A stretch of DNA of 63,994 bases, filler included, from Basidioascus undulatus (GCA_000826855.1; 8 parts of 8 records of this genome joined end to end with filler, not necessarily neighbours in it); one strand, 5' to 3'. Positions 843 to 51,043 are shown, numbered from the whole stretch's first letter. A program made the numbers and translations. Notes: a model not told the origin generated them from the sequence alone.

Positions 843-1861
843 TTACCAGTTGCCCTGCTGGGTCGTCTGCGCCGGCTCGGCGGCCCACGAGCCCTCCGCG
901 GCAGCGGTCGGCCTGGTCACACACATACGGAGTCAGCAACTTGCCTCGCACAGAAGGGACACCGCATGGAAAGGAGTAGGAGGAAGGAGAAGGGGGAGAC
1001 GACGCACTCAGCAGCCCAGTCGGTGTTGCCGAGGGTGCCGTCAGCGGCCCAGTCGACGGCGGCGTCAGTGGACTGGATGCCGGCGGCGAGGGTCGGGTCG
1101 ATACCGCCAGCGGCAGCACCGCCCTGGACGTCCCAGTCGGACAGGGGCGCGACGCCCTCGGCCTCAGCGTCGGCCGCACGGCCCTCCGCGGACGCAGCGA
1201 GGAGCTTGGCCTCGGCGGCGGCCTGCTGCTCAGCCTCAACCTCCTCAGGAGCACGGTACTGTCGAACGGGCGAACCATGAGCAAGCGACGAGGGGGCAGG
1301 GAAAAGAGAGGAGAGAGGAGGGAGAAGACGCACGAAGAACATGTCGGGCATGAGCTCCCACTTCTCGGAGCGCGAGAGGGTGCCGCGGATGCGGAGGACT
1401 TCGCGGGCGAGGAGCCACCAGACGAGACCGATGGCGTGGCGGCCCTTGTTGTTGGTGGGGATCGCGACGTCGACGAACTGGAGGGGCGCGTCGGTGTCCG
1501 CGAGAGCGATGACCGGGATGTTGACGTAGCTGTGCGAGAAGCACAAGGTGGTGAGAAATGCCGTACACACATGATCGCCGGCGACGATGAACAAGCAGAC
1601 TTACGACGCCTCACGGATGGCCTGGTGGTCGACACGGGGGTCGGTGACGATGATCAGGCGGGGCTCCTTGAACGAGCGGGTGATGTAGTCTGTTCGATCC
1701 CACGTATCCCGCGTCAGTCAACCCGACACCGCGCGTTGCACCGCCCGAGAAAAGAATGCCACGCACTCGTGAAGGAACCCGGGGTGAAGCGACCGGCGAT
1801 GGCCTGAGCGCCGGTGTTGGCCGCGAACTTCAGGACGGCGCGCTGGCCGTAGGGGCGGCCC

Positions 1862-11658: not shown

Positions 11659-14451
11659 TCAGAATTTAGTTGTCAAGTGTTTTAACGCAGATAAAGAAGG
11701 GGTTTGAGTCACGGCGAAAGCATGCGCACCCGTCAGGAAGCTGCTCAACTGCTGCTCGCGGCGGTTGCGGTGGTCGAGCTTGATCTTGCGGGCGAGCGTC
11801 GCCTTGATGTCGCGCACGAGTGCGCTGACGAGCATGACGCGAGTCCACGTGAATGCCATCTTGCGAAACAGCGCGAGGCAGTCCTTGTCGCTGCGGTTGA
11901 GGGCGCCCTCCAGTAGCGAGAGCATCTGGGCATAGAAGAAGCAGTCTTGAGCAGAATCCCAGAACAGGCGACATGACAGGCTGGCTGCGAAGCGTTCCTC
12001 GTCCGCTTCGGCGACCGACAGTCGCGGCTGATAAAAAGGGTTCGCGAGGACGCAGGACTGGCAGATGGGCCTGAAGATGAGGCTTCAGCAATGGGGTTCT
12101 TCGAAAGAGGGGCGGGTGCGGTACTCGACGTACTCGTTGTCCTCGTTGCGCGTCTGCCAGCAAGCTTCGAAATGAAGACATGGCCGGTGCGACCATACAC
12201 TTGGCCTCTTTCGACTTGGCGTTGGCGCATGGCTCGTATGTGGATCGAAAATCTCGAGAGAGCGAGTCTGCGTTTAGACAGGCATATCAGTCATGTCTCT
12301 ATCTCATATTCCGCCTGAGCAAGGGAAACAACCACATTACGCGCTTGGCGATGGGATGGTTTTGTTAGCGGCCTCGCGCTTCTTCAGCTCCTCGAGAAAG
12401 GGTCAACTCCGTTTCGGAAGATCGTAGCGCTGCGCGGTACGAAGCCGTAGGGCGTGGAGCTGATTGGACATCACACAGTCAGTGTCAGTCGTGAGGCCAT
12501 CTCGGCGGTTCCGAAACCGCAGCGAAGACGCTCGCCGCGTCCAGCGTACTTGAGAGGACGCCATACAGGCCATACTCATTCTTGGTGACGAGGCCGTAGA
12601 TCTCGGCGAGCGGCAGATATGCGGGGCTGTTGCTGACATGCGTGTAGTCCGCGCTCGAGACCTTCAAGCTGCGCCACTCGACGAGCACGCCGAGGAGACT
12701 ATGGTGCAGAAGTAAGACGAAAGGTGAAGAAGGGAAGCCGGGCAAGATAACGGACTGAGCGAGCATGGCCATGTAGGCGTCCGGCACGCACAGCGCCTCG
12801 TTCGGAAAGAAGATGTCGGGCGCCATGTGCGTGTACATCCGGGTGCCGGCCGGGGAAGCGGAGTGGTACGGGCACTTGACGACCTGGCCGTTCCAAAAAA
12901 ATCCATGAGCATTGACAAAACGCTGGGGATGAAGATGCGAGTAGAATGGATCGAGCAGCCTTGTGATTGGAGCGCGGCGTTCGTCTTCAGCATTATCTCG
13001 TGCATCTGCAGAAAGCACCTTCATTCAGAGTCTGACCTTGAAGATAAGTAAAAGAAAGAACACCAACCTCCTCCGGGGTCGGTACGTCGTCGCGTCCGAT
13101 CAGGAGTACGTCGGCCGGGTGGAGCTCCTGGATCTGGGCGAGGAGCTGGATCTGGGCGAGGAGCGGCGAGTCGAGGATAGCCTAACGCCCAAGACACACA
13201 GTCAGCAGAACTTCGGTTGTGGGTCCGCCTTGCGTTAAACCTACTTGGGGAACGGGCATCTCGCGAAGCTCCGCGAGAAAGTCCGCCTGCACATGTATTG
13301 CTTTGCATTGTCAGATGCTGGTTCTGTACGACCGGCAAGAGGACAGAAGCGCACCTTCATGTTACCCTCATTCTCCTCGGTCTTTGCCTTCTTGCTTGCG
13401 CGGACGCGCGGTGCACATGGTCTCCTGCCTGACCGGTAGCCGATGACGCACTCGAATTTGAGGAGGATTGCAACGACGAGGCACTACGTGGGCGACGGCG
13501 AGGAGTGGTAGCGCTTGCAGACGCCGACGATGTAGGCCTTGATCTTGCGCCGGTCCGCCGAGGGCAAGTCGCGGTAGTAGCCGAGAGCGAGGTCGGGGAG
13601 GAGCTTCTTGAACGACCTGCCCGACCTGTACAATGGCAGTAGCGTGTGAGCAGAACGATTAGGACAATGAATGAGAAGCTGTAGCATTACAGATCGGGAA
13701 GGTCGTGGTACTCGTGGTAGGCCTGCAACGCAGTGAGTTTCAGAAAACCAAGAAAGGATCTCGGAAATTATTCAACGGATGAGGCAGAGTTTGGGAGATG
13801 TGAAAATTCTTGGCACACCTTGTTCCAGTCGATGTGCTCGTTCCAGTTCCATCCCCACCCGCCCTTGTTCGCGCTGCTGGTGAAGCGCCGCAAACTTACG
13901 GGTTGAGTCCGTCCGCGGTAATGACGACTGGCGGGAAGATCTACTCCGCGATCTTTGGCAAGGAGAGCTTATCGTCTTGAACGTACAGCGCGAGTGCGGC
14001 CTCGCAGAACTGCTTGACCTAGCAGCGATGAAAAGGCAACCTCAGCACTGTCATCTGAGGACATCTGAGCATGCAGAAGGAGATACGCACGATCTCCTGC
14101 TCGGGCCCATTTCCCTTCCCTATGTTGACGGACATGAACTCCGCTCCCTCGAGAACTTGTTGTACTGGAGACCAGACAGAAAGTAAGTTACAAACCGCGC
14201 CCACCCAATGTTTCCGACTTCATTGTAGAAATACTCGGAGCTCGCGATGAACTGGCGCCAAGCCTTGTTCACAGCGCTCATGCTTCCGCCAGGAGTGATC
14301 TTGTACGTCGGACCCGGCAGAGCGTCCGGCCACTCGCCGAGCATCTTCTCCATGGCGGAGCGATACTCGTCCGAGTCGTTCTCAAGGACGTCGCGAAAGT
14401 GCTTGTAGTACATCGCGCGGACGACCGGGGAGTAGCCGTTGCTGGGCGCCA
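11659..14451 (-). pseudogene. Large multi-exon gene (or two genes) of unknown family, disrupted
   Basis: Coding-biased blocks (MAPSNGYSPVVRAMYYKHFRD..., GGWGWNWNEHIDWNK, FKKLLPDLALGYYRDLPSADRRKIKAYIVGVCKRYH, GFFWNGQVVKCPYH, LFRKMAFTWTRVMLVSALVRDIK) separated by GT-AG introns, with in-frame stops and an 18-bp duplication at 13128-13163. Confidence 0.45.
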
Positions 14452-17931: not shown

Positions 17932-18993
17932 ATGGATATGCAGACCTTGAACTTCTTCCAGCCGTACGAGGCCGCGGGGGGGAAAGCTGCGATTGGGGTA
18001 CGTCTTCTCTCCTTCCTCCTCCCTCTCCCTCTTCCCCCCAAGGAAAGCTGACTGGAGTGAGAGGTGGGGTGGAACAAGGTCGTCGCCTCAGTCGGCACGC
18101 TTTCCGCGCTCTCCTCGCTCGGCCTGATCATCTACCTCCTCTGGCACGCGTACCTCTCGTCCGACGCGCGCTCGGGCAACTTCGTCGCATGGCGGAACTT
18201 CGTCCAGTCCGACCCGGGGTGCTATTTGCTCAGCATGATCTTCTGTGCGTGTGAATTTGAGAGAGGGGAGGGCGGGCGGACAGCTGATGATGGGTGTGGG
18301 GTGTGGATGTTACAGCCAACTTCCTGCACGGACTCAGCTTCATGATCTCCTTCGCGTGGATCGCGCGTGAGGGGCTCGAAGTTGGGCCGACTTGCACTTG
18401 GCAAGGTCCGTAGGCGTCGTCTCCTTCCCTCCCCCATCCCCCCCCTCCGTCCCTCCCTTTCCCACAATCCCTGTTCCTCCTTCCCTTCCCTCATAACCTC
18501 TTCCCTCCTGGTGCTTATCCGAGGTTTCCTGTTTGGAAATCCAATTCCTCCCAGCGGCCATAACAACAGTCGGCGACCTCGGCTCAGCATTCTGGACGCT
18601 CGCGATCGGGCTGCACACCTTCTCGCTCCTCTTCCTCCTCCAGCGCCCACCGCGCTGGCTCATGCCCGCCTCCATGCTCGTCCTCTGGTCCGTTTCGATC
18701 CTGCTGCCCATACTGGGCGGGACGGTCCTGGAGGATCGGAAGAAGGCGGTGCCGTTTTACACGGGTACGTGAAGAGAAGGGGAGGGGGAGGAGGATGGCG
18801 CTGATGTGGGGTTTGTGGGTTGGGGATGGATAGGGAGGGGAGGTCTGTGGTGCTGGATCGATTGGGAGTATGATCAGGCGAGGCTGTGGTTCTTCTATGT
18901 CAGTCGGCACCTTCCCGCTCAACCATCATCCTTTTCGTCCTCTTCTCATGCTCACACCGTACCCCGCAGATCTGGGCATTTATCACCCTCTTC
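17932..18993 (+). CDS. Git3/Gpr1-type fungal GPCR, only TM1-TM4 and the start of TM5
   Basis: Exons 17932-17997, 18079-18244, 18316-18405, 18555-18764, 18834-18898, 18970-18993. Motifs: YLLSMIFSNFLHGLSF, GPTCTWQAAITTVGDLGSAFWTLAIGLHTF, PFYTGRGGLWCWIDWEYDQARLWFFYIWAFITLF. Confidence 0.85.
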
Positions 18994-21499: not shown

Positions 21500-22440
21500 G
21501 CTCCCTCGTCACATTCCCAAACCTCGCCGGCATGCCGGCCGAGGTCCTCGAAAAGATCCTCGCCGACGTCGATCCTGCCGATTTCGCAGCCCTCCCTCAC
21601 CAACCGGCGCCTGCACGTCTTCTGTGCTCTGCGCTACAGGTTCTGGACCGACAAGGTCTGGGCAGGCATCGACTGGTTTCCGCGGCGCGCCATGAAGGGC
21701 ACGAGGTCGAGGCTGACACATGCCTCCTTCCTGACCTGCACCGAGGACCAGCTGTCCCGAGATGCGACGCTCCATCTACGTCCCCGATATCACACATATG
21801 ACCGTCAAGCGGATCTCCGGAATTGGCAGCAGCGCGTCGGCTGCCGCACAGTGCCATAGCCTTGCTCGCGTCCTCAAGATCACCACTAGACTGACTCGCC
21901 TCGATCTCGACTTCGAACTCCTCCCCTCGAACCCCAAATGCGAGCCCGTCAGGAGCGCGCTACAGAGTCTTCTCAGTGCTGTTTGAAACCCGGGAACTTG
22001 TTCTCCCTGTGCCTAAACATACCCTTCCTTTCCGGTCGTACCTTTAGCGGCTGCGGGTTCGCTTTGCGGACCGACAGCACCGCACGTACACGTCGCCGAA
22101 AGGGCTTCACTCTTCCCCTCGACGGCCTCCTTGCCACATTACTAGGCAGCCTTCCCTTGCACCTCATCACCATCCTCGACCTGCACACTCGCCGACCCCC
22201 CAGGGATCATCCCCTTTCAACGTCGCTTGAGCACATGTCGAATCTTCGATCTGTTTTGACCTACAAGATCGAAGGCGGTCCTGTTCTACATGGTCTTTCG
22301 GACACTGCCCTCCCCTTGCTCGAACGATTTAACGGCCATACTGTCGACGTGGCTCTGCTCATCAAGCCAACCGCAAGCTCGGCCTCTGCTGTCCTTCATC
22401 GCTCTGCAACAATGCGAAGCTGGCGTGCGGTACGTTGAAG
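21500..22440 (+). pseudogene. Decayed F-box protein gene
   Basis: FPNLAGMPAEVLEKILADVDPADFAAL, then after a frameshift TNRRLHVFC (F-box motif). Later LRR-like LTRLDLDF and MSNLRSV pieces contain stops. Confidence 0.55.
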
Positions 22441-22889
22441 GTTCTCGCTGCCGACGGTCGATCCGTCATCGTCAAGGCTCGCATTTCCATGCCCCGTCAT
22501 TCGAGTGGTTCCACTTTGAGATACCTGTTATGAAGCATTGCTTTCGTAGGACAATCCACATAGACTCTCAGCCAGAGTACTGTCAGTCCATGGTTCTAGC
22601 AGCGCTATAGCGTCAGTCGCCGTAATTGATCAAGCCAGCCAGCGCGGGAGCACGACTTGTCAAATTGGATAGCTGAAGGCAGGCGCGCAACTTGCCGCTC
22701 CATATTCCTTGTTAGCACTCCGTAGAAGAATTACTGACTGTAACACTTGAAAGCCTGTGCCCTGTACTCCCTGACGCAGCTCGGCCTCAGGTCGTTCTCA
22801 CTCTCACCACACCAGCCCAGATACGAAGTACTCTCCGTCCAGAGTAAGCATGCAATCCTATGCGCTCCCCTGCCCGATGCGCGGCATCT

Positions 22890-24016: not shown

Positions 24017-24116
24017 NNNNNNNNNNNNNNNNNNNNNNNNNNNNNNNNNNNNNNNNNNNNTTAATTAATTAANNNNNNNNNNNNNNNNNNNNNNNNNNNN
24101 NNNNNNNNNNNNNNNN

Positions 24117-24748
24117 GCGCCCGCGCCCGCGCCGCCCCTCCGCGGGCGACCCCTCCGGGTGCTCGGAGGTGAACTTCTGCGGCGTGGCTGTGTTGGTTGG
24201 ATCTGCTTCGCCGTGAGGCACCAGCTTAACTGGGCGCGCGGCGAGGCGCAGGGACGTGAGGTGCGCTTTCGGGAGGACGTCGGGTGCGGTGGATGCATCC
24301 GCTTGGGAGAGCGGGCGGAAGAGGAGCGAGGTGCCCACGAGCGACTCGGGACGGAGGCGGTAGACGCTAGGACCGAGACGGAGAAAGGGCGTGGGTGTGT
24401 CGAGACCCTGCGAGGAGGGACGAGACGATAGTCAGCGACGCGGCTGAGAAGTGGGGGTGCGTGTGGAGACACACGATGAGAGAGTAGTCGTGCGAGTTGA
24501 GGAGCGCGGGGTCTCCCGTTGATCCCAGATCCACCGTCACATACAGATCCTCCTCCTGCATCGCATGGGATCAGCAAGACAAACCCGGCCAAACATGCGG
24601 AGCAGCGGTGTACCTCGTATTCCCACTCGTCCTCATCCTCATCCTCGTTCAAAAACGACTGAACATGCTTCCAACCTGGTCCCAGCAATGTCCCGTCCCC
24701 CTCGGCAGGGTCGTATGCGGGAGAGTGAGCGGTGGGAGCAGTGGACAT
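24117..24748 (-). CDS. TFIIIC subunit 6 (TFIIIC_sub6 / Tfc7 / GTF3C6-like), 3' truncated
   Basis: Acidic EDEDEWEYE|EEDLYVTVDLG...YSLI|GLDTPTPFLRLG...ESLVGTSLLF signature. Confidence 0.8.
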
Positions 24749-25175
24749 GATGAGGGTGAGGAAGGAAGACGCGTCGAGGGCGCGACTGAAGCGCATTCAT
24801 GCGCAGGGACGTCATTGAATCGCCAAACTACGAACCACCTGTTACTCGCAAAGGACCCAACTTGTCCACACATTGAGCCAGTGCACGCATTAAATAATGG
24901 TTCTGAAAAGTCACCGTAATCTTTGGAAGTACTCCTCTCGGTATAAGTCGCAGCGGGCGACCAGCCGCTGTGCTCGCCTCTGCGAGTCGATGTCCAGGGC
25001 TGTTTTCCTTGCCCCGCACAAGACGGCCGCACGACAGTTGTCTTTTCTATCTTGAGGTTACATTCATACACGTAGGTACATGTAAAAGGATCTTGGCATC
25101 TGGAGAATTGGTTCTCTGGACGTCGGGGCATTGACAACTGCGCGTGGCGGGCTTTTATGCGAGCTCGAGGCGAGG

Positions 25176-25186
25176 ACCGTAAAGGT
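25176..25186. promoter_or_regulatory. Candidate Zap1-type zinc-responsive element ACCGTAAAGGT
   Basis: One mismatch to the yeast ZRE consensus ACCTTNAAGGT, embedded in the inverted repeat GGACC-N5-GGTCC, ~130 bp upstream of the ATG at 25315. Confidence 0.5.
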
Positions 25187-25314
25187 CCTTGGCAACAAGT
25201 CAGTGCGCAATGGCGAGTCTTTTCAACGCTCGGGATACTTCCTTGCCCTGACCCACAGCGAGCTTGAGCTTTGGACTATCTCCTTCTGGCTCTACTCTCT
25301 ATTCGTTTGTGAAT

Positions 25315-26596
25315 ATGCAGACCTTCACCACCCTCGCTGCTCTTGCCGCCGTGGCGACTGGTGAGTCGTGACTCCTTGGCTGGCACACCTCCCCTTGAGT
25401 TCTTTCCTAAGATTCCTGTTTACTAAGGCGTTTCCGCGCACATCAACCTCAACTTCCCTTTGTCCACGCGGAACACGAGCGAGCAGTCGACCGGTGCTTT
25501 CTGCGGTCAGTTTTTTCGATCTTACACTGGCGGCAGGATAGAAGGCTGAAGGAGCAGAGTGCTGCAGGCGGTGGTGACCCTGTGGAGCGTGACAGCGACC
25601 GTTACACCTTCCCCCTAAACAACACCTGTAAGCGTGGGAAGGCCTTATATCCGTCACGCGAGGGCGAGCTGACATCCAGCAACGATCTACAGGGGTCAGT
25701 ATCAGCTCCGATGCCGGATTGCAGTGTAGGTTTCACTCGTCACATCCTCCGATGGAGCGCAACAAGGACTGACGCAAAGTCTCTCACAGTCTCTCTGCGA
25801 TACGCCAACTCTTCCGAGGCGACCTCCCTGGAAGGTGGGTGAACCTCCTTGACCGTTACCGCATTCAAAGCCTCACACCAAACGTCGTCCACCCGTTCCT
25901 CCACCGGCACTAGCCTTCGACCAAGTCCTCGTCTCGAACGTAACCATCCCCGAGTCCGGCAACCTTTGCCTCTTCTTCGACTTCGAGTCCCTCCCTCTCA
26001 GCGGGCAGACGGGTACCCTCTACTTCGAGTCTTTGGACCCCTCCGGCGAGGAGCCGGCCACCTCGGCTTGCGCGGACGTGGTGTTCAACTCTGGCGGTGC
26101 GTCTAGCGGCTCTACATGCGAGCATCTCTACAATGGAGCTGACATGCTAATGCGCATGGGGTTGGGAATACAGTCACTGCTGCGGTGCTCAACAACCTTT
26201 ACGACCAAAAGTGCACGAACGGAACGATTGAGGAAGAGACGGACCACGCGGACGAGGGCGAGTGCCACTGGTGCGCCCTGCTCTTGCAATCCCCCTATCT
26301 CCAGGCAAAAACATACTAACTGCCCCCAATTCTATTCCGCACAGCCACTCGCACGCCAACGGCGAAGAGCACTGCTCGGTACGCCCCGCTTCCACATGTA
26401 TTGACGACCGATTGACTGACTTGCCTACCCTATCCCCTACCGTTAGGGTAACTGCGATGCTTCCTCCACCACCGCCGCCGGCGCGAGCGAGACGGGCGCG
26501 AGCGACAACGAGGACAGCGGGGCGCTTTCGCTCCGGTCTGGCGCAGCCATCGCCGGTGCACTCGCTGCAGTCGGCGTTGCGATGGTCGCGTTCTGA
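25315..26596 (+). CDS. Secreted GPI-anchored Bim1/X325 (LPMO-like) family protein with a Pra1-type HCHxHxxGxxHC motif, 9 exons
   Basis: Exons 25315-25360, 25428-25505, 25568-25627, 25693-25725, 25790-25834, 25914-26096, 26174-26270, 26345-26378, 26447-26596. Translation: MQTFTTLAALAAVATGVSA^HINLNFPLSTRNTSEQSTGAFCGGGDPVERDSDRYTFPLNNTWVSISSDAGLQFSLRYANSSEATSLEAFDQVLVSNVTIPESGNLCLFFDFESLPLSGQTGTLYFESLDPSGEEPATSACADVVFNSGVTAAVLNNLYDQKCTNGTIEEETDHADEGECHCHSHANGEEHCSGNCDASSTTAAGASETGASDNEDSGALSLRSGAAIAGALAAVGVAMVAF*. Confidence 0.8.
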
Positions 26597-27299
26597 GCTC
26601 GGCACTCCAAAACACTTTCCTGTTCCTTATCTGTATACTGCATTTTCAAAGTACTCAAGCACGATGTAATGCGTGATGCTCCGCTTAGCTTCATGGTGGC
26701 TCTGTCTGCTCGTTGTTATGGCTGTGCTGGAGTCCGAGCCTTGTTGTCGGACATGTTCCTGGGTTTTTGGACAGGCCGTCAGAGTTGACTTGCGCCCCCT
26801 CCATTCCAACTTCCGCTTTCGAACCAGCAGTCACAGCTATTTCCGGTTAGAATACTCGGGAAAAGACCCGGGCGGATCGGCCTGGTCGGAAATTGGTATG
26901 GCAGGACGGAGATTGTTTGGGAGGTTCTGGAAACTACGGATCGACTTTTGGAGAATTGCAGACTTGTAAGAGCTCCGCGAGGGGTTAGGACCCTTACACC
27001 TGCAGACGAAGCCGTGCGCCGCTCAAGTGCTCAAGTACGTCTCTGTCCTCTTTGCCATTCTATTTAAAGCCTGTATTTCACTTAGATTAATTGTCTGCCC
27101 CTCTCATGCGGGAGCGTCTGCAAGAAGCTTGAGTCCCTCTCGACACAAGGCATCATTCACTGGCAACGGGGGTGTTCCTTCCTTCTCCTCACCTGTACTT
27201 TCTGCTCCTGCGACTCTGGAGGATGCTGGGAACCTCAGGTCAGCCGCAAAGACATGCCCAATTCAATTCAAAAGGGCAGTAGTAGCTGGGACGGCAGCA

Positions 27300-29110
27300 G
27301 GTCATCCAAAGTGTATATTTCACTGCAGCAGTCCATTCCTTCCCCCACTGAATCTTCTTTTCATCTTTCCCACCTCATTATACCATGCCCACTGTTCAAT
27401 CCTGATTTTCTCCCACATCACATACCTCCAACGCTTAATGTCCCACATCATTTGAGTTCAACATCCCACACACCACATCTGCTTTGCTTGCAGCAGCTTG
27501 ACCTGCAATTAGAGCCATGGCAGTAATTGTATTGTGCCTCTTGCTGCTAAGCAGTGCACCTTTAGAGGCAGTGAAGCCAATGCAGGCCTTCAATTAGGAA
27601 TATTGGAAGTTTGTTAATGATGGATTGCTAAACTTAAGACATACCTCAACTGAAAATTGCCCCTGACAGAAAGTTGTCCTGGAAAGAAAGCCCACTATGT
27701 CAGTATGAAAACCAGAAGTCATTCTGTCATTCTTACAAATCCAGCCCACTTTGTCAGGATACAACCAGACCAAACTGTAAGACCAGACCACCAGACCAGA
27801 CCATCAGATTAGACAAGATGTTCAGACCAGACCAACCTGTCAGACAAGACCCCCAGACCAGACCAGGCTTCCAGGCCAGACAATTAGGCAGGACCACCAG
27901 ACCTGACCAGAAATTCACCGGACCAAACTGTCAGGCCAGACCCTTAGACCAGACCTCCAGACCATTGAACTTCCATATGGGGAGGGGGGGGGCAGGGGAT
28001 GTAATTTTGGATTTTGGTCCTAATGTTAGGACCAAATGACATGTTTCTCAACCATGTTTCTTTAATAACAGGTTGTCACTGCACCCTGGATGTTGGCCCT
28101 AATATTAGTACTCAGTGACACATTTCATCACTGCACACACTTGGCCCTCTGCTCCCTGGGCTGAAGGCCCACATGATTTGTGTCTGGCAACCCCCCCCCC
28201 TGCAGAAATCTGTGCGTGTGGGGACATGGCCTACAGGCAGGTTTTAAAAAATTGAGCACAGTAGCTCATGTTTTGGGGCCTAATAAAAATGCCACCCTCA
28301 ATGATTACATTCAGCTGACACTGTTTCTTGTGGTCTTCCAGCCTCTTAAAATAGCAGTGCTTGAGTGATGGATGCCTGTGAGTGAAGAAATGCCTGGGGG
28401 AAATTGCAGTACCTTGGGTGAAAAACAGCCTTGATGAAATGGCAGTCCTTCAGTGAAGGACAGCCATGAGTGAAGGACTGCCTCAAAAAATGTCACTCTT
28501 GTCTTGGTGTCTACCAGAAGGTATTCAGTCAGAATGACAATTACAAGGTGTTCAGTTAAGATGACACCAACAAGGCCTTCCTATCTACCAGACACCTACA
28601 GACACTGACTATCTATATCTGCAGACACACTGTAGACACACCCTTGTAGATCCTGACAATCCATGGTGACTGACATCCCACAGACCCTGCCTGTCTATGG
28701 TAAATCTGTGCAACAATGATCTGGCTTGTAGAATGTCCAAGTCATCTCCTCCTCCTCACTCACCACTCCCAGCTGTCATCCCGTAGTCAGCATGTCTTGA
28801 ATGCTGCATGCACTGCAGACAACAACAACTTTGTCACCTTTGCTGACCTGTCCCGCCACTTCATTGCTAGTGACCCCATCATGAGTGTCTCCTTTAAATA
28901 CTGCAGCTTGACACTCTCTGGCTGTGGGACCAGTGCAATCTGGAGAGCCCTAAAGACTTTGCACCACTCTCAGATGAGGTGTCGCCAAAGCTGGTGATGG
29001 CTGTGGGTTTCAACATGGGTGTCCAAAATGTTCTCCAACATGTCAGCAAGTTGTCCACATGCTAACATGTTAGCAGGCTGTTCAATGCTTCACCCAACAT
29101 GTCAGAGGAG
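27300..29110. mobile_element. CpG-depleted degenerate repeat/transposon relic
   Basis: Almost no CG dinucleotides over ~1.8 kb in a CG-rich genome, a CCAGA-rich array at 27764-27964, and a hairpin TTTGGTCCTAA-TG-TTAGGACCAAA at 28013-28036. No intact ORF. Confidence 0.5.
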
Positions 29111-29197
29111 CATCCAAGTTTGCAGCGACAGCCGGGGACAACAGCAGTACTAACATGACGACTCATATCGGAGCCAGTACAGTGCGAGTATAATTTC

Positions 29198-29490
29198 ACC
29201 TTCCATTGCATCAGGCAACCAGGCATGCTGTCCGAGCTGGGCAGACTTACCCATGGCACCTCCGATCAGCAGCAGTGCCACAACTGTCAACAGGTCTTCA
29301 CTGACATACGGAGCCAGGCTGAAGACTGTCGCGTAGTCGAGTGACCGAATAGTCAGAACACGGCGCAGAATCTGACGGAGAGCGAGTAGTCACTGACTCG
29401 GTCCGTGATGAACGCCTTGGCCGCTGACTTGCTAGCTTGAACACGGCTGAACCAGAAGCCGATGAGCAAGTATGATGCGACGCCTATGCC
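29198..29490 (-). pseudogene. nad5: NUMT: mitochondrial nad5 exon fragment
   Basis: [35 protein letters not shown]...VF(TGA=W)LFG, then after a frameshift LDYATVFSLAPY...GAMGKSAQLGQHAWLPDAMEG. Confidence 0.92.
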
Positions 29491-29690
29491 TTACCACTCT
29501 TTTTCAGCGTATCAGAGCTACTGACTGTACAGTGTTAACGGTGCAATTTGTCCAACGGTCATTACGGCGTTGAAGCAGCTACGGCTAGCACAGCACCACA
29601 GTGACGACAGTTAACACGGCGTTACTGTGGCTACGGCCAACACGGCGTAGACCACGAGTGTGCTGTACCGAAATGACGGCGGCAGGGGAG

Positions 29691-29746
29691 TCAGTCGATT
29701 TTATACTGCATGGAAGGGATGACGTACGGTTTGACCAGGGCGCCCA
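29691..29746 (-). pseudogene. NUMT: C-terminal tail of an intronic LAGLIDADG homing endonuclease
   Basis: [15 protein letters not shown] resembles the LVKPY/HFIPSMxYK terminus of mitochondrial LAGLIDADG ORFs, and is followed by group I intron-like sequence (GTACAGTC). Confidence 0.55.
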
Positions 29747-30070
29747 CTAGTGTGTTAGGCGCGTAGAACACAAACAGTGACAGTGCCAGCAAGAACAGGA
29801 ATATGGTCACCAGGTCCTTAAAGGTAAAGTACGGGTGCATCGCAAGCCGGTCAGTGGTGCCAGTCACGCCCAGCGGGTTCGAGCTGCCGTGCGTGTGCAG
29901 TGTCATCAGGTGCACGATGGCCAGCGCAGCTAGCAGGAACGGCAGCAGATAGTGTAGGCTGAAGAACCGGTTCAGCGTGGCGTTGCTGACCCTGAACCCG
30001 CCCCCAAAAACTCAACAAAGTCCTGGCCGATCCAAGGAATCGCACTCAGCGGATTCGTGGTTACGGTTGC
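29747..30070 (-). pseudogene. cob: NUMT: mitochondrial cytochrome b exon fragment
   Basis: [21 protein letters not shown], a 1-nt frameshift, then [46 protein letters not shown]...HPYFTFKDL...FYAPNTL. Preceded by group I intron-like core sequence (ATGTACAGTCG...GGTACAGTC) at ~30071-30330. Confidence 0.95.
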
Positions 30071-31248
30071 CAGTTCCCTACCAGGACAGTAGACTGTACC
30101 GAAGAGGCTCGACTGTACATTAATCGGCTAACTTCGGTGCTGTGTCAGCCACCCACGAGCGAGGCAGTCAGTAGCGGAGGCGGCTTACTCCGAGGGTCTT
30201 GAGCGCACCGGGCGGCTCTTGACCGTTACAGCTCGTGATGCCAGGCAGACTACTACTGTACGCTACACAGCAAGCCGCGATCACTTGGCCTATAGCTGCA
30301 GCGTTCTCGTGTGCTCCCTTCGCTCGCGGGCACAAGCGGTCTGGACATGGGGACGGAGGGATTTTCAAAAGGTCCATTACTGGTCAAGAACGATGGGAGA
30401 CGCCAGAGCTAGGGAGGGGGGGGGGCGTTGTATGAGGGCGAGGGCGCGGGGGTCACGGGCCGCAGCGCAGGGCGAGGGATGAGGTTGCGTCCAAGGAGTA
30501 GTTTCTTGCTGCGACAGCCTATTCCGACTGTTATCCTTTCACAGATAGCTTTTCTTGTTCATTGAGAGGACTGCAAAACACACAACAAAAAGCAAGCAGC
30601 AGGGGCGACGCTGGCTGCCTAGCTGACAGAGGCAACTTTGCTGAACCTTTCCGCTTGCGACTTCCCACCCTTTCAAGAGCTAGGCCTAGTTGGGACTGTA
30701 ATTCAGGGAAGGAGAGCAGCGATTCCAGGAAAGTCATATGTGCCCAGTATTGCCTCCACGGAAAGAGCCTTCCTCGACAAAGTTTAAGGAAAGGCGCAGC
30801 TACAGGGCTGCTTGTAGACTCCCGCACCATTGCACAACGCTTCCCTCACCCTCATCCTTGGACATAGACAAAGAAAAGCTGTGCATTGAAAATCCGTGAT
30901 GAAAAACCCCAGCAGCATGGGGAAAGCATTTTTTTTTTTGCCCTGCCGCCAGACCTGATATACTGTCGTGCTGGAAAGCTGAGAAGATTCAGGACGGCAT
31001 TCGCGCGGTAGGGGATGGGAGGAGTCAATGAGTGGAAGAAGGGTTGAAGGGGAGGGAGAGGGGAGGAAAGGGTAGGGTATGATCAGAGCGGAGTGCGGAG
31101 AGGCATGGATGAGGTTACGAAGCCAGATAGAGGATGAGCAAGTGCATGCATGAGGGTACGGAAAGAAAAGCGCGTCGCGCCTGCCCTGGGATACACGTCC
31201 CATCAGGCTGATGGTAATAGAAACACGAGATTCCAAGCCCTGAGGCAT

Positions 31249-48180: not shown

Positions 48181-51043
48181 TGATGAGAGGTGGGAGGGAA
48201 GGTTGCGTTCACCCTCTTCTCTTCCCCGCTCCTCCTCGATGCCCCGCCCAGGCAGTCCCACCCCGACGCGAGCGCGGGGGCGCCCCCCCCTGAGGAAGGC
48301 AAGGGGCTCAAGCTGGTTAGCGCTGATGAGGTGAGCGTGGGGGTGAAGCAATGGTGGGAGGGGCGCGGAGATGCTGATGGCGTGTGAGTGGAGGACAGGT
48401 CAAGAAGCATAATTCGCGGGAGTCGTGCTGGGTCGTCGTGGGCGGGGAGGTCTGGGAGTGCGTCTTCCTTCCTTCCTCCACCCCCTCACATCCGCCGCCC
48501 GCTCATGAACCCTCCACAACAGCGTGACTGATTTCCTGGACCACCATGTCCGTCTCCTCCCCCTTCCCCTCCTCACTTCCCTAACTCCCTCCCCTACAGC
48601 CGGGCGGTTCCCGCATCATCCTCACCCATGCCGGCTCGGACGTAACCAGTCTCTTCACTCCCATCCACCCGCCGCACACGCTCGAAAACAACCTCTCCCC
48701 GTCCCAGCACGTGGGCACCCTGGACCCCAGCACCGCGTCCTCTCTCTCCCCGCACGGCGCCGGGCCCAGCGAGGCGGAGCTCGTCGAGTCCCGCCGGCGC
48801 GCCCTCCCGCCCCTGGGGGCCATGATAAACCTTGATGACTTCGACCGAGCCGCGGAGGGCGTGCTCGGCCCGCAGAGCCAGGCGTGGGCTTACTACCGCT
48901 CTGCAGCAGACGACGAGTCCGCGTACTCCCGCAACCGGGCGGCCTTCTCGCATCTCCTGCTGCTTCCGCGCACGCTCGTGCCGGTGAGCAAGGTGGATGC
49001 GAGCACTTGCTTCCTCGGGCAGAAGACGAGTTTGCCGATTTTTATTGCGCCTGCGGCGCTGGCGAAGTTGGGACACCCCGATGGGGAGGTGAACCTGACG
49101 AGGGGCGCGAGGAGGACGGGGATCGTGCAGGGCGTTAGTTCCAATGCGAGTTGTAGTTTGGAGGAGATGTTTGAGGCTGCGAAGGGCGAGGAAGGGCAGG
49201 CGAGGCTGTGGTTCCAGCTCTATGTGCGTCTTCTGCGTCTTCTTCCTTGCTACGTCCTCCCTTGCCCGCTTCCTTTACTGACCCTCGCCGGATCTAGGTA
49301 AACCGCGACCGCAAAAAATCCGAAGCGGTCGTGAAGAAAGCGCTTGCGTAAGCTTTCTTTTCTCTCCCCCTCCCTCCCTCTTCCTCCAGTCTCATCTTCG
49401 CCCTCCGCCCGTGGCACGAAAACAGCGGCGGTTGCTCTGCGATCCTCCTCACGGTCGACGCGCCCGTCGGGGGAAAGAGGGAGCGGGACCTGCGGTGCGT
49501 GTGCTTCCCCATCTCTCCTTTCTTACCCTCGCACCCCATCTTTCCTTCCTCCCCCCGCGTTCCTCCTGGTCCTTCCGAGCAAGCCGGCGACTTAATGACT
49601 GTTGGAATGCTGAAAATGTGACATGGCAGGGTGAAGGGAGACTACTTCGATGCCTCCCTCGGGGAGAGCGAGAGCGTGTCGGGCGCGCAGTTCTCGTACT
49701 TGGACGGTGTGTCTCCCTCTTCTCCCCTCTCCTCCTGTGCTTCTCTGCTTTCTCCCTTCTTCTTCCCCCTCCCTCACCCTCACCCTCTCTGTCTTCTCCC
49801 TCGCCTTTGTTTCCCTCTCCCCCCTATCCCCCTTCGACGCCTGCTCTCCCTTCCCTCGTGCCCTTCCCGGCCCCCTCTTCCTGCTTATAGAAGCACCTTT
49901 CCGATCTGGGCTGACTCGACCCGCGGGAAACCGAACCAGCCGACCTTCAATGGTCCGACCTCGCATGGCTCAAGAGCCTCGCGCCCAACACGCCCATCAT
50001 TATCAAGGGGATCGGTGCGTCCCCGTCTTGCCCCTCCCCTCTCGTCCCCGCACTGGGAGTGCTGCTTCTTCCTATCAGAACTTTGGCTGACTGCTGGAAC
50101 GAGGAGACAGCTACCCCCCAAGACGCCCAAAAGGCATACGAGCACGGCTGTGCAGGCGTGATCCTGTCCAAGTCCGTCTTTCCCTCCCCTCTTCCCCTTC
50201 CATCTCCCACCTCCCATCTTCCACCTCTCTCCCCTTCTTCCGCATCGCCTCCCAAAAAACCGATTTTCTTTTAAACAAATCTATCTCGAAACTGATGGGC
50301 GCATTTGGATGGGGGCAACCAGCCACGGCGGCCGCCAGCTCGACTCTGCGCCCGCGCCGCTCGCGACGCTGCTCAAGATCCGGCGCGTCGCACCGGAGCT
50401 GGTGGATAATCCCAAGTTTGAGATTTATTTGGATGGTGCGTAGACTGGCCTTCTCTCAACTCTCATCTCTCCTTGCCTTTCCCTTCTCCGTCCTTCTGCG
50501 TTTTCGTTTCCGCGTGGCCCTTCGAGCTTCCGTTTTACACGTCCCTGTTGCACGTTCCCGAGACTGGCGAAATTTCGTGGCTGACTTGGAACGGGCAATG
50601 GGGGGTTGGTGGGCAACAGGCGGTGTCAGGCGAGGCACGGACGTCGTGAAGGCCCTCTGCGCAGGAGCGCGGGGCGTCGCGCTGGGCCGGCCGTTCCTGT
50701 ACAGCCAGGTGCGCTCTCTCCTCCTCCATCTCCTCCCCTTCCCTTCCGTCTCCTATTCGACCCCTGCTCATTTGAACCCACCTCGCAGTCCTGCTACGGC
50801 TCCGACGGCGTCGTGCGGGTGTTCCAGAGTACGTCTCCCCGTCTCCACCTCTCCCTCTCCCTCTCGCCCCAGTTCTACCACAAAGTTAAGGACACGAGCT
50901 GATGATCCATGCGAGCTTTGGCAGTCATGAAAGAAGAGATCGAGCTCGCGATGCGCCTCGTCGGCGCGCGGACGGTCGACGAGCTGAGGCCGGAGATGGT
51001 CGAGCTGCTCGAGGGGGGCAAGCTTTTGGGGAGGGGGATCTGA
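48181..51043 (+). CDS. CYB2: Flavocytochrome b2 family (L-lactate/mandelate:cytochrome c oxidoreductase), 5' truncated
   Basis: Cytochrome b5 domain [28 protein letters not shown], then AWAYYRSAADDE, PIFIAPAALAKLGHPDGE, WFQLYVN, TVDAPVGGKRERD, PIIIKG, SNHGGRQLD, DGGVRRGTDVVKAL, GRPFLY. Confidence 0.9.

Follow-up and report, generated by a model that had tools for sequence, protein, structure and literature searches.

Among fungi, Bim1 is the known case of copper capture at the surface, and a single family of secreted proteins, Pra1/Aspf2, is known to scavenge zinc; some basidiomycete pathogens, for example Cryptococcus, do not possess this family (PMC3796257). Could a copper-capture protein have been made over into one that captures zinc? 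A gene of Basidioascus undulatus (GCA_000826855.1) raises this question. It occupies positions 25315-26596 of the plus strand of the window, by which we mean the whole stretch of DNA that was analysed (63,994 nucleotides (nt), filler included, made of eight parts of eight records of this genome joined end to end). A sequence-only reading of the window had taken the product for a Bim1/X325 copper-protein fold converted into an anchored zinc carrier; the observation itself is confirmed by the present analysis, but its interpretation is supported only in part. The proposal weighed here is that a basidiomycete lineage made a tethered protein that captures zinc and feeds a ZIP importer out of a glycosylphosphatidylinositol (GPI)-anchored Bim1/X325 scaffold for copper capture, through the loss of an internal histidine and the gain of a CHxHxxGxxHC motif, and we regard it as possible, though on the doubtful side. 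Such a tethered 'zincophore' would form a class apart from the secreted Pra1 family, with a module partly encoded by a 34-nt mini-exon, a classification that we put forward tentatively. The finding is a testable hypothesis drawn from one gene in one genome.

The gene, as its splice sites are read from the sequence, comprises nine exons (see the table), and its coding sequence of 726 nt specifies 241 amino acids and a stop codon. Residues 181-191 of the product match CHTHXXGXXHC, with serine in place of threonine, which agrees with what the sequence-only reading had claimed. PMC12663325 gives this as the C-terminal motif of Candida albicans Pra1 (residues 289-299) and states that basidiomycete Pra1 proteins retain it. 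When the preceding histidine is counted with the motif, 9 of the 12 residues are identical to the C. albicans Pra1 peptide, studied as Ac-SHCHTHADGEVHC (PMC9780748). From that same paper we learn that the equivalent Aspf2 peptide binds Zn(II) through two cysteines and two histidines, with zinc preferred over nickel, and that C. albicans Zrt1 has a related zinc site, CHFHAGVEHC. Among the sites tested as peptides, CH[T/S]HxxGxxHC is the one of highest affinity for Zn(II) in both Pra1 and Aspf2. The pattern H.H..G..H has no other match in the six frames of the window, and the probability of meeting the motif by chance is about 2e-11 per position (a rough estimate from typical residue frequencies for 11 residues with 7 fixed positions). 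Around it stand Glu, Asp, further His and two more Cys, a setting typical of a metal site. The acidic cluster as a whole holds five histidines (His173, 180, 182, 184 and 190) and four cysteines (Cys179, 181, 191 and 195).

The codon for Cys181, TG|C, is split between bases 26269, 26270 and 26345, and residues 181-191 are encoded by 26269-26270 together with 26345-26375. The motif therefore forms only when intron 7 is removed, exactly as had been claimed, and annotation that is based on open reading frames (ORFs) or is poor in protein evidence would miss such proteins.

The same cluster bears on another explanation, namely that the product is a wall or surface protein without any part in metal trafficking, its degenerate brace inactive, its four tail cysteines engaged in structural disulfides and its motif a functionless relic or case of convergence. 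Fungi have several Bim1-like paralogues, of which at least one, BLP1 of P. destructans, is barely responsive to copper; Bim1/Cbi1 also affects cell-wall structure; and extracellular cysteines are, as a matter of general knowledge, often oxidised. We nevertheless consider this explanation improbable, given how rarely the motif should arise by chance and the His, Asp and Glu that flank it.

The copper site of X325 proteins is formed by the N-terminal His (amine and imidazole), an internal His and an Asp on a Gly-rich loop, according to PMC7529816 and PMC10952591. In the spliced model, histidine occurs only at residues 20, 173, 180, 182, 184 and 190. Since there is none in residues 21-172, the internal brace His is absent whatever alignment is adopted. 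This absence, which had been claimed before by inspection of the second-His segment, is the firmest new fact of the analysis. His20, the predicted mature N-terminus and first ligand of the brace, is kept, and the Asp/Glu-rich loop DPSGEE stands in the expected order, ahead of the third cysteine, so that a carboxylate ligand may well remain. Thus the earlier statement that the GDG of the family is replaced by DPSGEE holds insofar as DPSGEE is present, but the loss of the Asp ligand that it implied was a by-eye reading, and the loop has stayed acidic.

This state of the site brings in the main rival explanation, according to which the product is still a copper protein, a Bim1-like paralogue with a mono-histidine brace made of the N-terminal amine and imidazole together with carboxylates from the Asp/Glu-rich loop; the Cys/His cluster, too, might hold Cu(I) or Cu(II), which would be delivered to a Ctr transporter. 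The family is a copper family, and both His1 and the Asp/Glu loop are kept. YcnI of Bacillus subtilis, which likewise has an N-terminal His, no second brace His and a carboxylate that completes the site, binds copper by a mono-histidine brace (PMC8424229); it is a bacterial copper protein of unrelated fold, but it shows that a protein without the second His can still bind copper. In addition, a disordered tail of an AA14 lytic polysaccharide monooxygenase (LPMO) holds about 0.6 Cu and about 0.1 Zn per molecule (bioRxiv 10.1101/2025.11.04.686606). Because this brace and this tail bind copper, the statement that the Basidioascus protein has 'switched from copper to zinc' keeps the standing of a conjecture. 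By general coordination chemistry, a CxC and a His-rich composition would also suit Cu(I). Against the copper explanation stands the fact that the exact motif is documented for Zn(II) in Pra1, Aspf2 and Zrt1, and we hold the explanation to be unlikely, though far from negligible.

That the protein belongs with Bim1 and X325 at all was examined by Pfam matching, which, like the searches for relatives described below, was done per exon or per unspliced reading frame. Exon 6 (60 amino acids) matched a single entry, BIM1-like_dom (PF20238), with 15.1 bits and an E-value of 0.034 over positions 70-122 of the 140 in the profile, and the frame that contains exon 2 (25427-25549) also matched PF20238 only, with 13.3 bits and an E-value of 0.12 over positions 1-28. 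PF20238 was the sole family matched across the locus, as judged from exon 6 and the 18 frames (plus strand, stop to stop, 20 amino acids or more) in 25252-26676; among these whole frames only that of exon 2 matched Pfam, exon 6 scoring only when cut out alone. Dividing the library E-values by the 24,736 models gives per-model P values of about 1.4e-6 for exon 6 and about 5e-6 for exon 2, which are the ones that apply because the sequence-only reading had named this profile beforehand. The two matches are collinear, with 46 residues between them for 41 profile positions, and beyond exon 6 another 18 residues run up to the final cysteine and sequon of the domain, where the profile has 18 positions left; by this fit of lengths, the acidic His/Cys cluster begins right where the Pfam domain ends. 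With two collinear matches and no other Pfam family at the locus, the earlier assignment to Bim1/X325 is upheld. Membership in the BIM1-like superfamily is well supported, the N-terminal domain of about 150 residues being read as a divergent Bim1/X325 member of predicted like fold, and it is very probable that the architecture is real and part of that family.

The remainder of the protein agrees with this assignment in its layout, and every feature that the sequence-only reading had listed is present. VSA precedes His20 after a hydrophobic leader, the cleavage site being read by the -3/-1 rule; the four domain cysteines, Cys41, Cys106, Cys140 and Cys162, stand in the contexts described; RYTFPL, WVSISSDAG and DPSGEE all occur in the spliced protein, as does the His/Cys cluster; and exon 9 ends with a Ser/Thr/Ala stretch, the small residues DSGA, a short spacer and 17 hydrophobic residues, an arrangement that is GPI-like by rule. 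There are also five N-x-S/T sequons for N-glycosylation. The product is thus probably a secreted, N-glycosylated, GPI-anchored protein of the cell surface. A Ser/Thr linker and a GPI anchor are, as stated in PMC8615602, common to every X325 member.

Bim1/Cbi1 of Cryptococcus neoformans and LaX325 of Laetisaria arvalis resemble the Basidioascus protein in a signal peptide that exposes an N-terminal His, in domain length, in the collinear profile matches, in four domain cysteines, in an acidic loop late in the domain, and in the stalk and GPI-type tail. In contrast to them, it lacks the internal His, so that the canonical brace of two His and one Asp cannot form, and it carries the acidic cluster of five His and four Cys, with its Pra1-type motif, inserted ahead of the stalk. 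Its sequence is also strongly divergent, a phmmer search with exon 6 yielding no recognised family member among the four of its eight matches that were scanned. The literature covered on X325 and Bim1-like proteins, which did not extend to the founding Bim1/X325 papers and the phylogeny, describes none with this motif or without the internal His; those founding papers may include such a subgroup.

All this presupposes the splice model as read from the sequence. Its eight introns all run from GT to AG and measure 62-79 nt, and 5 of the 8 contain CTRAY, a word resembling a branch point, at 17-31 nt from the 3' end. The G+C content of third codon positions (GC3) is 0.80 over the whole coding sequence and ranges from 0.70 to 0.92 among the nine exons, with 0.58 and 0.52 at the first and second positions (GC1 and GC2) and a GC of 0.54 in the introns. 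The nine-exon gene proposed earlier is therefore confirmed, in that it gives one open frame of 241 codons, GT-AG introns and a high GC3 in every exon.

It is quite improbable, in our view, that the model is materially wrong or the locus silent. Two forms of error can be named. Firstly, retention of introns 3 and 4 (129 nt together) would leave 25568-25834 as one uninterrupted open exon and add one His and two Cys. In this unspliced frame, GC3 falls to 0.45 in exon 4 (0.73 in the frame of the model), 0.48 in intron 4 and 0.64 in intron 3, which favours the spliced form, and the unspliced product would have 89 residues against 41 profile positions of PF20238, whereas the length after splicing agrees with the 140 positions of the profile. 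We therefore think it unlikely that these two introns are retained. Alternative donors for exon 4 at 25723 and 25729 were also considered and rejected, as both throw the frame into stops. Secondly, skipping of exon 8 would lead to a stop two codons after His180, hence to a truncated product with neither motif nor anchor; introns 7 and 8, which border this exon, begin and end canonically, with CTRAY words at 25 and 27 nt from the 3' end. An error of some kind would also agree with the failure to find an annotated orthologue in the protein searches with exon 6, and with an odd feature of intron 5 (25835-25913), a three-base periodicity of GC (0.78, 0.65 and 0.31 by phase). That intron is open in one frame, without a Pfam match, up to the TAG that doubles as its acceptor; the periodicity may be due to chance or be the relic of an older coding sequence.

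What would such a protein do? That it is a member of the X325 family, anchored and adapted to capture zinc, zinc being the metal handled, seems to us quite possible, if somewhat short of an even chance. The flexible His/Cys cluster would capture Zn2+ at the surface of the wall or membrane, and a ZIP importer would receive the metal from it. Bim1 acts together with Ctr1, and the proposed pathway would combine this Bim1-to-Ctr1 logic, in which an anchored capture protein stands beside a transporter, with the chemistry of Pra1 and Zrt1.

Pra1 of C. albicans, Aspf2 of Aspergillus fumigatus and Zps1 have in common with the Basidioascus protein the motif CH[T/S]HxxGxxHC, an apparently unstructured acidic region and the secreted state. 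The core of the Pra1-type zincophores, a histidine triad of HRXXH + H according to PMC12663325, is not found here: the positions of the histidines permit none, and there is no Pfam match except BIM1-like. Furthermore, in contrast to these proteins, the one studied here is predicted to be anchored, not released, its motif is internal, before the stalk, and not C-terminal, and no adjacent ZIP gene (Zrt1/Zrt101) was detected among the frames scanned in 1-50.2 kb. Another parallel is the extracellular loop of C. albicans Zrt1/Zrt101, where a motif of the same type is borne by a membrane-tethered surface protein, although the Zrt1 motif is more tightly spaced by one residue and the Basidioascus carrier is no transporter. 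In C. auris, according to a conference abstract (PMC9516197), a duplicated zinc-binding ectodomain of Zrt101 has been turned into a putative new zincophore, which provides a precedent for the modular reuse of such sites. If the proposal is true, it would show that short Cys/His modules can move between surface proteins, and would point to an anchored way of capturing zinc that has gone unrecognised. The protein would further supply a natural test case for the share of X325 metal specificity that resides in the histidine brace.

A series of observations weighs against this proposal, and the first of them concern the family. Exons 2 and 6 do match the BIM1-like profile to which the sequence-only reading had pointed, but neither score reaches the 27 bits that Pfam sets as its gathering threshold (the rough sum of the two is 28.4 bits, single exons having been scored). 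Moreover, the frame of 183 amino acids that contains exon 6 had no Pfam match at E<=1, so that each PF20238 piece, taken alone, stands close to noise.

As to conservation of the motif, no relative was found in protein and metagenome-contig searches with exon 6 (60 amino acids). A word-indexed search for longer proteins produced 24 candidates, of which not one had E<=0.01, and its counterpart limited to proteins of 100-321 amino acids gave two, none at E<=10. In a phmmer search of 1.84 billion representatives there were eight matches at E<=0.001; the three that were read proved to be repetitive low-complexity proteins and were rejected, and PF20238 was absent from the four of the eight that were scanned, the scan having left out the four of 1631-2130 amino acids. 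Among metagenome contigs, 500 pattern matches were reduced to five loci confirmed by tblastn. Three of the five were inspected and discarded as unrelated (two long bacterial-type ORFs and one locus with short frames only), and the match statistics of the other two are the same as those of one of the long bacterial-type ORFs. Solved structures returned 12 matches to exon 6 at E<=10, all unrelated (designed propellers, a pyrroloquinoline quinone (PQQ) protein, a cell-surface protein and viral capsid proteins) and without an X325 among them; two pieces of exon 2 (22 and 40 amino acids) had no match in the same collection.

With regard to the metal, Cys/His clusters bind Cu(I) too. The promoter speaks for zinc to the extent that it contains an element resembling a zinc-responsive element (ZRE) and no copper-element consensus string. 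The ZRE-like ACCGTAAAGGT sits within a GGACC..GGTCC palindrome and departs at one position from the yeast Zap1 consensus, ACCTTNAAGGT, taken from PMC2535606. There are five one-mismatch ZRE sites in the window where 1.35 are expected, a number reached in 1 of 100 shuffles, and at the shuffled density about 0.02 would be expected in a promoter of about 880 nt; the other four lie at 12660-12670, 13035-13045, 22432-22442 and 29815-29825. However, the consensus is that of Saccharomyces cerevisiae and may not be the one used in this lineage, and the site here is mismatched. For copper we searched with TTTGCKCR and DWDDHGCTGD, which we take to be the consensus strings of Mac1-type and Cuf1-type elements. 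The first has four matches in the window and none in the promoter (about 880 nt), the nearest being at 18225; the second has 82 (about one per 780 nt), none of which falls in 24231-26132 and hence in the promoter. So degenerate an element being so common in the window, its absence says little.

The neighbourhood is likewise silent about a partner. Scans for domains of ZIP, Ctr or Pra1 type came out negative both for 83 frames (70 amino acids or longer) at 20.1-33.7 kb (3 of the 83 had any match at all) and for 150 frames (100 amino acids or longer) in the rest of 1-50.2 kb (any match in 2 of the 150); these scans left out 77 frames of at least 100 amino acids at about 49.9-64 kb and easily miss genes split by introns. 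For the copper explanation, too, these data are unfavourable: a ZRE-like site is present, neither a Mac1-type nor a Cuf1-type element occurs in the promoter, which is weak evidence, and no Ctr gene was detected nearby among the frames scanned.

Table. Exons of the Basidioascus gene, with other features of the window that are discussed in the text.
Feature	Position	Strand	Remarks
Exon 1	25315-25360	+	Start codon and bulk of the signal peptide; GC3 0.73
Exon 2	25428-25505	+	End of the signal peptide (VSA), His20 as predicted mature N-terminus, first domain strand to Cys41
Exon 3	25568-25627	+	Gly-rich turn, RYTFPL; GC3 0.70
Exon 4	25693-25725	+	33 nt; WVSISSDAG, stretch expected to bear the internal brace His, without His
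Exon 5	25790-25834	+	Read-through into intron 5 reaches TGA after two codons
Exon 6	25914-26096	+	Domain core: Cys106, acidic loop DPSGEE, Cys140; 60 amino acids; GC3 0.87
Exon 7	26174-26270	+	End of the domain (Cys162, NGT sequon), then acidic His/Cys cluster, extending to bases 1-2 of the Cys181 codon
Intron 7	26271-26344	+	74 nt; 5' GTGCGC, branch word TACTAAC (CTAAC core 25 nt from the 3' end), 3' CAG
Exon 8	26345-26378	+	34-nt mini-exon, core of the Pra1-type motif; GC3 0.92
Exon 9	26447-26596	+	Cys195, Ser/Thr/Ala stalk, small residues for a putative GPI site, 17-residue hydrophobic tail, stop
ZRE-like element ACCGTAAAGGT	25176-25186	+	One mismatch to the yeast Zap1 consensus ACCTTNAAGGT; 129 nt upstream of the ATG
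TFIIIC subunit 6 gene	24072-24431	-	Upstream neighbour
Ribosomal protein SA	920-1600	-	Recognisable neighbour
Flavocytochrome b2 fragment	48585-49298	+	Recognisable neighbour

Among the recognisable neighbours, the flavocytochrome b2 fragment marks the window as coming from a basidiomycete-type genome. It matched 515 proteins at E<=1e-20, with an identity of 43-52% among the best 120 of the 515. The best named matches are all from Basidiomycota (Naganishia, Ustilaginales, Rhizoctonia, Mycena and others) among those listed, and the lower rows include Cichorium and the ascomycetes Peltula, Piedraia and Thozetella. The lack of a close relative among the matches listed for this gene agrees with the fruitless searches made with exon 6 and with the short, closely packed introns.

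Downstream of the gene, two further observations can be recorded. The minus strand of 29062-30077 contains mitochondrial-like pieces, one of cytochrome b at 29694-30011 (Pfam Cytochrom_B_N_2, 7e-15) and one of an NADH dehydrogenase or antiporter at 29153-29389 (Proton_antipo_M, 2.5e-5). They are open only if TGA is read as Trp, have a GC of 0.52-0.58 and lie in a nuclear-type context; the segment looks like a nuclear insertion of mitochondrial DNA. Nearer to the gene, 27600-28100 is occupied by a short-period repeat of lower GC (0.44-0.51), with RPDQT-like peptide units in several frames.

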